In this document: positions 49,153 through 51,018 of the stretch, one piece after another
How the letters are laid out: each line of letters starts with the position of its first letter
Position numbering within the stretch: position 1 is the stretch's first letter
From: Escherichia coli
GTDB lineage: Bacteria > Pseudomonadota > Gammaproteobacteria > Enterobacterales > Enterobacteriaceae
Assembly (NCBI RefSeq): GCF_003790525.1
Contig: NZ_CP033635.1
Strand: one strand, 5' to 3'
Length of the DNA: 64,000 nt
Made by a program: the position numbers and the translations under genes
The notes under the pieces: generated by a model
What the model was told of the DNA's origin: nothing
Seen by the model: the letters and a program-made list of their open reading frames with translations, nothing else
The model's database searches: none

Positions 49153-49382
49153 AATTAATTAACGTCATCAGATCCGAAAATAACGAGAATATTTCAGTCT
49201 CTCATCCTGTTGCGCTCCTGTCATGTGCATTGCTTCATATCATCACTGGCGCAAGGAGCGCGCAGGGGGCGGCCAATCGCCGCCGCCCCCTGCACCCCCG
49301 GGCTCTGGCGAACAAAATCGCCGCTGCGCGGTACCCTCGGCTTATCCCTTGCGGCTACCGGGTCGGGCGCGAGGTAACATAT

Positions 49383-50760
49383 ATGGACGCTCCCGGAATG
49401 CAATGCTTTCTTCAGTTATGTAATAAAACGGGTAGGTGCAGCCATATATCCGGTTTCTGATGGGATTTTTATCCCGAACCATGATGAAATCCGCCAGGCA
49501 GGTACCAATCATCCTCTACGGGCTAACTTGCCCTTGTTACCTCTCGGTGTATCCTGCCTGCGGTCTTACCTGTTTTGCCATCTTCTGAAGTCACCTGCAC
49601 CTACCAGGACGTTAACTTTTTTTCAGCACCTCGTCAGATTGACTGACCTTGTGTCAGGCGAGCTGCCGAGGTTGATATTCAGTATTGTGTGACAACATTG
49701 ACCACATGATCCTCGCTGTTTTTGCCGCCATGGCGACAACAGCTACATTGTAGTGCTTCCGCTCAAGGAGCCCCTGAAGCCAGGAATTCTCCTCAACCGC
49801 GCCGTTTCGGTTGACCCAGGCGGTAAGTGCGCGTGCGCCGTGAACCAGCAGGTATCGGAAATATCCATCTCCACGTTTGCTGATCCCTCCCAGTTGCTGT
49901 TTCCCGCCGCTGGAATGTTCCTTTGGTGTCAGCCCCAGCCATGAAGCGAACTGCTTTGCGGTACTGAATTGTCGGGCATTACCCACTGCTGCTACCACAT
50001 AAGTGGCCGTTAGCATGCCAACCCCCGGGATCTTGGCCATTCTCTGGCAGGCTTCCTGCGTTCTATACCAGGAGGCCAGAGCTTCTTCTACCTGTTTAAC
50101 TTGTTCTTCAAGTTCCCGGATATGTTTAGACTGTCTGTAGATGCTGGTTCTGACAAAGGGAGATAAACCATTTTCGCCATCCTCCAGAATGGCTGGCAGC
50201 TCACGTGTTAAATGGCTTTGTCCGGCCGCAATCGTAATACCAAACTCAGCAAGTGTGGCTCTTAAACTATTGGCACAGGCAATCCGCTCACGGATAAGTA
50301 TTCCCCGTTCAGTGTGTAACGCTAAAACGGCCTGCTGCTCTTCGGTTTTTATCTGAACAAAACGCATATTCGGACGGGTTACCGCTTCGCAGATTGCTTC
50401 AGCATCTGCTGCATCCGTCTTGTTCGTTTTCACATAAGGCTTCACATACTGCGGAGGTATGAGTTTTACCTCATGACCATAGCGGGTGAATAATCGCGCA
50501 AAATAATGACTGGATGAGCAGGCTTCCATGCCAATCAGACAAGGTTCCAGTTGAATCACAAACTGAACAAACTTAGCCCGGGTGAGCTTTTTACGCAAAA
50601 TAGTATGGCCTTCATGATCGACACCATGAAGCTGAAAAACGTTCTTTGCCAGATCGATACCAAGAGTTGATACTTTCATGTGGACGCCCCTAATTTTTCA
50701 GGACGTATTGCAACGATCCAGTCTGGTACTTTGATACCGTAAAATCTGGAGCGTCCATCT
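49383..50760 (-). mobile_element. IS110/IS1111-family insertion sequence (boundaries approximate)
   Basis: Contains a DEDD-type IS110-family transposase gene; the 11-mer ATGGACGCTCC (49383-49393) is inverted-repeated at 50750-50760, possibly marking (sub)terminal repeats; the flanks belong to two different K-12 regions. Confidence 0.5.
49654..50679 (-). CDS. IS110-family (DEDD) transposase/recombinase
   Basis: 341-aa product MKVSTLGIDLAKNVFQLHGVDHEG...: RuvC-like N-terminal GIDLAKN motif and C-terminal block with GISKRGDGYFRYLL, typical of IS110/IS1111 transposases; AGGGG Shine-Dalgarno 7 nt upstream. Confidence 0.85.
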   Translation of the reverse strand: MKVSTLGIDLAKNVFQLHGVDHEGHTILRKKLTRAKFVQFVIQLEPCLIGMEACSSSHYFARLFTRYGHEVKLIPPQYVKPYVKTNKTDAADAEAICEAVTRPNMRFVQIKTEEQQAVLALHTERGILIRERIACANSLRATLAEFGITIAAGQSHLTRELPAILEDGENGLSPFVRTSIYRQSKHIRELEEQVKQVEEALASWYRTQEACQRMAKIPGVGMLTATYVVAAVGNARQFSTAKQFASWLGLTPKEHSSGGKQQLGGISKRGDGYFRYLLVHGARALTAWVNRNGAVEENSWLQGLLERKHYNVAVVAMAAKTARIMWSMLSHNTEYQPRQLA

Positions 50761-51018
50761 CATTATCCCTGTAAAACGCGCCCTCAGCCCACATCCATGT
50801 GGGCTGCCCCGGCCTTCGGGGAACGCTTCAGCGATTTTGACGCCACCAACACCGGTGCGGTTTGTAATTAAAGCGCAAGAACATCTTTAAATGAAAACGA
50901 ATACTCTACTGCTCCTTATGCATAACATTTCCTTTTAATTGCAACTTTACTCGTCCTTCCGCTTTCAGTAGTGTGTCATCGCGCATTTCGACTTCATCTT
51001 TGCAAGGACTGGGTTTTC

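Follow-up and report, generated by a model that had tools for sequence, protein, structure and literature searches.

A large inversion that sets Escherichia coli SMS-3-5 apart from K-12 is already known, with transposase-bearing inverted repeats published in 2017 and TRIP1 breakpoints in 2024. In the passages of Wang et al. (2017, BMC Genomics 18:268, PMC5372343) that deal with it, a single 1.402-Mb inversion is reported between SMS-3-5 and K-12-like scaffolds, flanked by an inverted-repeat pair, “E”, of 1606 bp whose product is the transposase WP_000868863.1; these passages give no insertion sequence (IS) classification, and do not treat TRIP1, the distribution of the inversion or an ancestral configuration with two IS copies. 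TRIP1 is a GC-rich structured repeat of ~266-273 bp, found as TRIP1a between aqpZ and ybjE (lysO) and as TRIP1c between yohG and yohI (mdtQ/dusC), in opposite orientations (Rudd 1999; Li et al. 2024, PMC10888264). For rearrangements between TRIP1a and TRIP1c, Li et al. (2024, Genes 15:236) counted 68 aqpZ-yohI and 58 ybjE-yohG junctions in 6,725 genomes, and gave 1,313,407 bp as the region affected in SMS-3-5; they credit TRIP1 alone, and a transposase or IS at the junctions goes unmentioned outside their cited references. Here we analyze a stretch of 64,000 nucleotides from another E. coli strain (contig NZ_CP033635.1 of assembly GCF_003790525.1; hereafter the window), in which one junction of this inversion is occupied by an IS1111-type element at positions 49380-50765. 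Our analysis suggests that homologous recombination between two inverted copies of this element, each inserted site-specifically in a TRIP1 repeat, caused the inversion, a reading to which we assign a probability of about 0.8.

The inversion described by Wang et al. is the same event, the window coming from another strain of the clade, and WP_000868863.1 is annotated at the yohP-lysO junction in SMS-3-5; a literature search for WP_000868863 gave no main-text match and found it only in the supplement of Wang et al. The breakpoints (aqpZ-yohI and ybjE-yohG) and the example strain, SMS-3-5, are likewise those of Li et al. Unlike in their account, however, the IS is found at both junctions in 84 of the 85 inverted genomes of our dataset, and none lacks it at both. 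Two points are modest additions to this record, the link between the IS and TRIP1 and the inversion's dependence on the IS. They carry a correction: among complete genomes, the inversion published as “TRIP1-mediated” is confined to those whose TRIP1 copies hold an IS1111-type element. IS-flanked inversions are described in passages on the E. coli long-term evolution experiment (PMC4173774) and on S. pyogenes (PMC11602124), and as in those cases inverted IS copies on opposite replichores would have recombined to give a tolerated inversion symmetric about the replication axis. Unlike in the other IS-mediated inversions, the copies here are placed by the site specificity of the IS and by a pair of inverted repeats that was already there and, because these two dictate placement, the same breakpoints are predetermined. 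The locus may thus serve as a natural example of a site-specific, RNA-guided IS that pre-positions long inverted homologies at mirror-image sites, so that a replication-compatible megabase inversion is predetermined.

The two junctions and the geometry of the inversion

The part of the window to the left of the IS is collinear with the plus strand of K-12 from 2.18 to 2.229 Mb (thiD through mdtQ and yohP), and the part to the right with K-12 from 915 to 908 kb (lysO, hcp, hcr, poxB and onward), reversed; in K-12, yohP is followed by dusC, and aqpZ precedes lysO. A first-pass annotation of the window had proposed that gene order breaks at the element, with the right-hand block inverted relative to K-12, and the alignment to K-12 bears this out, with the break falling exactly at the IS. 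The yohP-side alignment covers K-12 2,226,095 to 2,229,293 and ends at window position 49380; the lysO-side alignment begins at 50765 and covers K-12 915,111 to 911,876 in reverse, with 97.8% identity over 3.2 kb. The interval that had been proposed for the element, 49153-51018, does hold the IS but equals the whole yohP-lysO intergenic region, the IS itself being confined to 1386 bp. The features around the junction are:

49069-49152, plus strand: yohP, closing the K-12 47-min block thiD...mdtQ-yohP; annotated in the identical SMS-3-5 stretch and collinear with K-12
49202-49379, no strand assigned: left half of TRIP1, of TRIP1c (yohP/dusC-locus) type; the alignment to the K-12 yohP locus runs to the insertion point
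49380-50765, minus strand: IS1111-group insertion sequence, absent from the intact TRIP1 of K-12 (both loci) and of strain KFu014
50766-50860, no strand assigned: right half of TRIP1, of TRIP1a (aqpZ/lysO-locus) type; start of the alignment to the K-12 lysO locus
51019-51918, plus strand: lysO (ybjE), opening the inverted K-12 19.7-min block lysO, hcp, hcr, poxB, ltaE

We surveyed 5,426 complete E. coli genomes for this arrangement. The yohP-IS-lysO junction is present at full length in 84 of them at the 4.5-kb scale and in 85 at the 25-kb scale, SMS-3-5 included, so that it is rare (1.6% of complete genomes). A query for the reciprocal junction was built from K-12 and the IS (aqpZ, left half of TRIP1a, IS, right half of TRIP1c, dusC), and was found at full length in 84 genomes, on the strand opposite to yohP-IS-lysO in the same records. 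The second IS copy that the first-pass annotation had expected between aqpZ and dusC is therefore there, inverted, in SMS-3-5 and in 84 complete genomes, and the arrangement is, as it had supposed, not the common one. The transposase genes of the two copies occupy positions 910,096-911,121 (plus strand) and 2,314,068-2,315,093 (minus strand) of SMS-3-5.

The inverted segment measures 1.40 Mb in SMS-3-5 and 1.3-1.4 Mb overall. In K-12, the breakpoints, which are also the target sites, lie at 915,110 and 2,229,292, at 676 kb and 639 kb from dif (1,590,750-777), in agreement with the earlier suggestion that they are nearly equidistant about the terminus. In SMS-3-5, dif lies at 1,656,736-763 on the other strand, inside the inverted segment. 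As the segment holds dif and its ends are near-equidistant from it, strand bias, replichore balance and terminus polarity are kept; GC skew in the window has a negative sign to the left and to the right of the junction, although this signal is noisy.

The window differs from SMS-3-5 by a single mismatch over positions 43,000-60,500, with identity of 93-97% further left, in the yeh region, and its best match among the complete genomes is 99.6% identical over 25 kb. Given this mosaic identity and best match, the source strain is a recombinant relative of the SMS-3-5 clade that the set of complete genomes does not include. The inverted genomes fall into three sequence tiers related to SMS-3-5, probably sublineages, for which the inversion is a structural marker.

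Origin of the inversion

The sequence of events that we propose has three steps. The IS, with its RNA-guided DEDD transposase, would have inserted site-specifically in a TRIP1 hairpin loop, in a fixed orientation and without target duplication. The position and orientation of insertion are directly observed; the guidance by RNA is what we infer. TRIP1a and TRIP1c would then have offered the same site in opposite orientations on opposite replichores and, because of this, an ancestor of the CE10/SMS-3-5 group would have gained two inverted IS copies. Homologous, presumably RecA-dependent, recombination between the resulting ~1.6-kb inverted IS+TRIP1 repeats would finally have flipped the 1.3-1.4 Mb between them, an inversion that appears to have been tolerated and to be fixed now in the three sequence tiers (85 of 5,426 complete genomes).

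Genomes that carry the IS in the uninverted order lend support to this scheme. Using synthetic queries for the uninverted junctions, we found yohP-IS-dusC in 10 genomes and aqpZ-IS-lysO in eight, and both copies together, mutually inverted, in CE10, Res13-Lact-PER13-34, XJ6.1, JNEC-KY178 and LR778147. This CE10-type arrangement is the substrate configuration for the inversion. Five single-nucleotide polymorphisms (SNPs) in the IS, at 49771, 49791, 49818, 50377 and 50409, separate the lysO-side copy from the dusC-side copy, a distinction that is identical in CE10, which is uninverted, and in SMS-3-5, which is inverted; as the two strains share it, both IS copies predate the inversion and had already diverged. 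Locus-specific SNPs common to CE10 and SMS-3-5 also delimit an apparent crossover interval for the SMS-3-5-type lineage, to which the window belongs:

49250-49770, no strand assigned: apparent crossover interval, 521 bp, consisting of 131 bp of TRIP1 and 390 bp of IS, with flanks exchanged left of 49771

The two remaining sequence tiers of inverted genomes include 980-2 and MRY15-117, and in these strains the IS copy at aqpZ-dusC is chimeric, being of the TRIP1a-locus type at 49771-49818 and of the TRIP1c-locus type at 50377-50409, so that its switch point lies between 49818 and 50377, inside the transposase gene (tnp). The yohP-lysO copies carry short converted patches. Such chimeric copies and converted patches are marks of homologous recombination or gene conversion between the copies. 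The IS is carried by 179 of the 5,426 genomes, at one to four places per genome (median two), and occurs at both sites in 89, of which 84 are inverted. A query for the inverted aqpZ-dusC junction without the IS retrieves 85 genomes, 84 of which contain the IS there; the exception, KFu014, is the sole inverted genome without it at this junction, and keeps it at the other.

The earlier proposal that the inversion arose by recombination between two inverted IS copies is supported by the reciprocal junctions and the inverted copies described above, and the observation behind it is confirmed. That account did not include the presence of TRIP1 at both loci in all strains, nor the prior publication of the inversion. 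TRIP1 itself is the basis of the most serious competing explanation, the reading of Li et al., where the TRIP1 repeats recombined on their own and the IS copies were passengers. TRIP1a and TRIP1c are indeed inverted and almost identical over ~215 bp, the crossover interval of the SMS-3-5 lineage holds 131 bp of TRIP1, and other, rarer TRIP1-associated junctions are reported (Li et al. 2024, PMC10888264). However, all 85 inverted complete genomes have the IS at one or both junctions, no genome among the 5,426, nearly all of which have TRIP1, shows the inversion without the IS at either junction, and none of the ~5,250 IS-free genomes has the inverted aqpZ-dusC junction. The chimeric copies, in addition, place the exchange inside the IS, which contributes 1.39 kb of homology on top of the ~0.2 kb of TRIP1. 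We therefore regard recombination between the TRIP1 repeats alone as unlikely. A different objection, also raised in the first-pass annotation, is that the junction could be an assembly chimera, a misjoin across a repeated IS, since repeats of 1.4-1.6 kb are classic misassembly points in short-read assemblies. The presence of the junction in 85 independent complete assemblies from many laboratories and platforms, the reciprocal junction in the same genomes, and the inverted dif of SMS-3-5, as an inversion predicts, refute this for the lineage, and leave it a negligible chance otherwise.

The recombinase of the IS could also have catalyzed the inversion directly, by acting on the left-end junction of one copy and the right-end junction of the other, followed by resolution and re-insertion. 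Passages of the literature credit bridge RNA and seekRNA recombinases with programmed inversions, the crossover interval of the SMS-3-5 lineage spans the boundary between IS and target at 49380, and in KFu014 one junction holds a TRIP1 that is empty and exactly restored. This route, however, predicts an empty target together with a head-to-tail IS dimer, and no dimer was seen in the genomes examined: a single IS stands at each junction in 84 genomes, and KFu014 has a single IS at its other junction, while its empty site looks like a recent loss, given the IS in the near-identical MINF_1A. Moreover, end-specific recombination cannot yield exchange points inside tnp, and several steps are needed where homologous recombination needs one. 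We find this route very improbable, and give just as little weight to the idea that the terminus segment of 1.3-1.4 Mb was inverted, or is flipped time and again, by the seekRNA-guided recombinase of the IS instead of RecA. Were that so, a bridge-type recombinase would have produced a megabase inversion in nature from two copies in identical TRIP1 hairpin loops, and the mosaic IS copies and the emptied KFu014 junction would be its footprints.

Homologous recombination between the IS+TRIP1 copies thus remains our preferred explanation, with several points that weigh against it. The crossover of the SMS-3-5 lineage is placed only to 49250-49770, and could lie in TRIP1 rather than in the IS. Later gene conversion, seen as mosaic SNPs, has partly erased the original crossover point. 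The association between IS and inversion is phylogenetically confounded, as all inverted genomes may share one or a few events, and the dependence on RecA is an assumption. Finally, the seekRNA guides presented below are predicted only, and the second of them, of 7 nt, is weak when taken alone.

KFu014 merits a description of its own. In this genome (NZ_CP091712.1, 2925702-2930098; intergenic region at 1959-2341 of the extracted locus), the aqpZ-TRIP1-dusC target is restored exactly, as …GAGGTAAC AT CCCTG…, and MINF_1A, which is near-identical to it, retains the IS at aqpZ-dusC. This looks like a recent and precise loss of the IS, compatible with excision; note here that in assays of ISEc11, re-joined flanks after IS loss were not detected (PMC11187229). 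One sublineage has a further change at the other junction, where an IS3-family element of ~1.26 kb sits in the 5' part of the yohP-lysO copy of the IS1111-type element and disrupts it. This insertion is found in MRY15-117 (2990-4167 of the extracted locus) and in many genomes of the tier with 98.6% identity.

The IS1111-type element and its TRIP1 target

Among the systems closest to the element are the seekRNA-bearing IS1111-family elements ISEc11, ISKpn4, ISPa11 and IS4321/IS5075 (Siddiquee et al. 2024, PMC11187229). The IS1111 group is characterized there by a transposase of 330-350 amino acids in which the motif GL-P----S(T)G occurs; a left end extended by 7 nt is a rule of the family, and ISEc11 is reported to have a promoter at the joined ends. 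The first-pass assignment to the IS110/IS1111 family agrees with our profile matches and with the anatomy of the element, which on sequence grounds is an IS1111-type member of the IS110 family. Its parts are:

50679-49654, minus strand: transposase gene (tnp), 341 amino acids, with a DEDD/RuvC-like N-terminal domain and a PF02371 C-terminal domain
49381-49653, minus strand: non-coding region of 273 nt downstream of tnp, the presumed source of a seekRNA (bridge RNA)
49383-49393: right-end subterminal inverted repeat ATGGACGCTCC, on the 3' side of tnp, separated from the IS terminus by 3 nt
50748-50758: left-end subterminal inverted repeat GGAGCGTCCAT, on the 5' side of tnp, separated from the IS terminus by 7 nt, partner of 49383-49393
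49398-49403, minus strand: -35-like TTGCAT at the right end of the IS, from the computed circle junction

The transposase scores 359 bits with the NCBIfam model NF033542 (“IS110 family RNA-guided transposase”), whose cut-off is 140, and matches the Pfam domains PF01548 (DEDD_Tnp_IS110) at 1e-14 and PF02371 at 4e-24. Its motif GLTPKEHSSG, within SWLGLTPKEHSSGGK, fits GL-P----S(T)G. It is 40-52% identical over the full length to the transposases of IS4321, IS5075, IS5708 and IS1618, and the solved recombinases of IS621 and ISCro4 are distant relatives (E ~1e-7 to 1e-8). The subterminal inverted repeats, read from the sequence, are 11 bp each, and the non-coding DNA amounts to 273 nt downstream of tnp versus 85 nt upstream. 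Joined IS ends would give a predicted promoter, TTGCAT-16 nt-TATAAT, at the computed circle junction. The element thus resembles the described IS1111 elements in its subterminal inverted repeats, 7-nt left extension, long non-coding region downstream of tnp, DEDD transposase of 330-350 amino acids with the GL-P----SG motif, duplication-free insertion at a specific site in a repeated sequence, and predicted junction promoter. It is unlike them in its target, a TRIP1 hairpin loop rather than GTGAAAATACTG, attC or Tn21 inverted repeats, in a transposase just 40-52% identical to the named relatives found, and in that its seekRNA is a prediction.

The TRIP1 loci, lengths and orientations that we observe agree with the described TRIP1a and TRIP1c, and the median number of TRIP1 places in an E. 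coli genome is three. In a three-way alignment, a near-identical core of ~215 bp is common to the yohP-dusC and aqpZ-lysO spacers of K-12, where it lies in opposite chromosomal orientations. The flanks of the IS in the window (180 bp on the left and 95 bp on the right) resemble the opposite K-12 locus too, at 92-93%. The left half, whose locus and length fit the TRIP1c described by Li et al., is 92% identical to the K-12 aqpZ-lysO copy, and the right half has 92.8% identity with the copy at the yohP locus. The insertion point in TRIP1 is …GAGGTAAC-AT-CCCTGTAAAACG…. The empty sites of K-12 and KFu014 show that insertion is exact and without target-site duplication, with only the 2-bp core ambiguous; AT stands at both 49379-80 and 50765-66, the bounds 49380-50765 assume a split of this core, and the length of 1386 bp counts one copy of it.

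Across eight IS copies, the position and orientation of insertion relative to TRIP1 are identical at TRIP1a, at TRIP1c and at an asmA-yegH copy. The insertion site falls in the apical loop of a hairpin with the stem GGGCGCG/CGCGCCC, within a consensus structure for TRIP1 that has 66 predicted pairs, 10 of them with compensatory changes. The IS appears to be dedicated to one hairpin loop of TRIP1, and the literature that we searched contains no paper linking an IS1111-type element to TRIP1.

The asmA-yegH copy is a more diverged TRIP1-like sequence (~80-88% identical to TRIP1c), outside the five TRIP1 loci of Li et al., with the IS at 2501-3884 of three extracted loci. It seems to be the location of the IS in many of the genomes that carry a single copy.

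A candidate seekRNA and variation among TRIP1 copies

In IS1111 seekRNAs as reported by Siddiquee et al. (2024, PMC11187229), the segment matching the top strand lies 5' of the one matching the bottom strand, with overlap between their target positions. The 273-nt non-coding region of our element, invariant across the eight IS copies except for one SNP, gives a predicted RNA fold more stable than its shuffles (z = -2.98), in which one internal loop is of particular relevance:

49504-49548, minus strand: candidate target-binding internal loop of the seekRNA, its two strands flanking a small hairpin

In this predicted fold, the 5' strand of the loop is GAGGUAACA (49535-49543) and the 3' strand is GAGGAUG (49510-49516). 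The 9-mer GAGGUAACA has a perfect complement in TGTTACCTC, a stretch directly at the core that takes in its T, and we estimate the chance expectation for such a match anywhere in the target at ~0.06. GAGGAUG has its complement on the opposite strand, across the core, the fit being closest in the CE10-type target, and its 7-nt match consists of five to six Watson-Crick pairs plus a wobble and overlaps the 9-nt match at the core. The order of the two candidate segments is that of the described IS1111 seekRNAs, and the IS may encode a seekRNA guide complementary to its TRIP1 insertion site. An Rfam scan of the IS region gave no bridge RNA or seekRNA family, and returned just a chance-level AgvB match.

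For TRIP1 itself, the Rfam family TwoAYGGAY was considered for the intact K-12 TRIP1c and rejected, as the match scores 30.9 bits against a gathering score of 43 and is gone in a larger search space. The match lies on the minus strand of the intact K-12 TRIP1c (3230-3381 of the extracted locus), a region that corresponds to window positions ~49320-49380 and 50766-50850. One TRIP1 hairpin has an AUGGAU loop, and the loop of the second aligned hairpin, AGGGAU, is the exact IS insertion site; the subterminal repeats of the IS start with ATGGAC.

Two transitions in the right half of TRIP1, at window positions 50769 and 50775, differ between genomes. The changes are common to both TRIP1 copies in SMS-3-5 and in CE10, and the copies differ in 980-2 and MRY15-117. 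This sharing within genomes suggests concerted evolution of the two TRIP1 loci. For an RNA pairing with that strand, the changes would only swap Watson-Crick and G·U pairs.

A more unusual variant is found in CFIAFB20120266, where the TRIP1 in the dusC-yohP spacer (2273-4045 of the extracted locus) is flipped relative to the flanking genes. It is closer to TRIP1a than to TRIP1c, and the sequences directly flanking it do not align to K-12. The IS keeps its usual position and orientation within the flipped TRIP1, with GT instead of AT as the core on one side. Since this TRIP1 is flipped and its flanks are unalignable, TRIP1 appears to act like a replaceable or mobile cassette.

Away from the junction, SMS-3-5 has an integrase-bearing island adjoining rcnR (35639-42001 of the extracted locus), at a point corresponding to window position ~4094, where the window runs on into thiM, thiD and a gene for a GntR-family regulator, like K-12.

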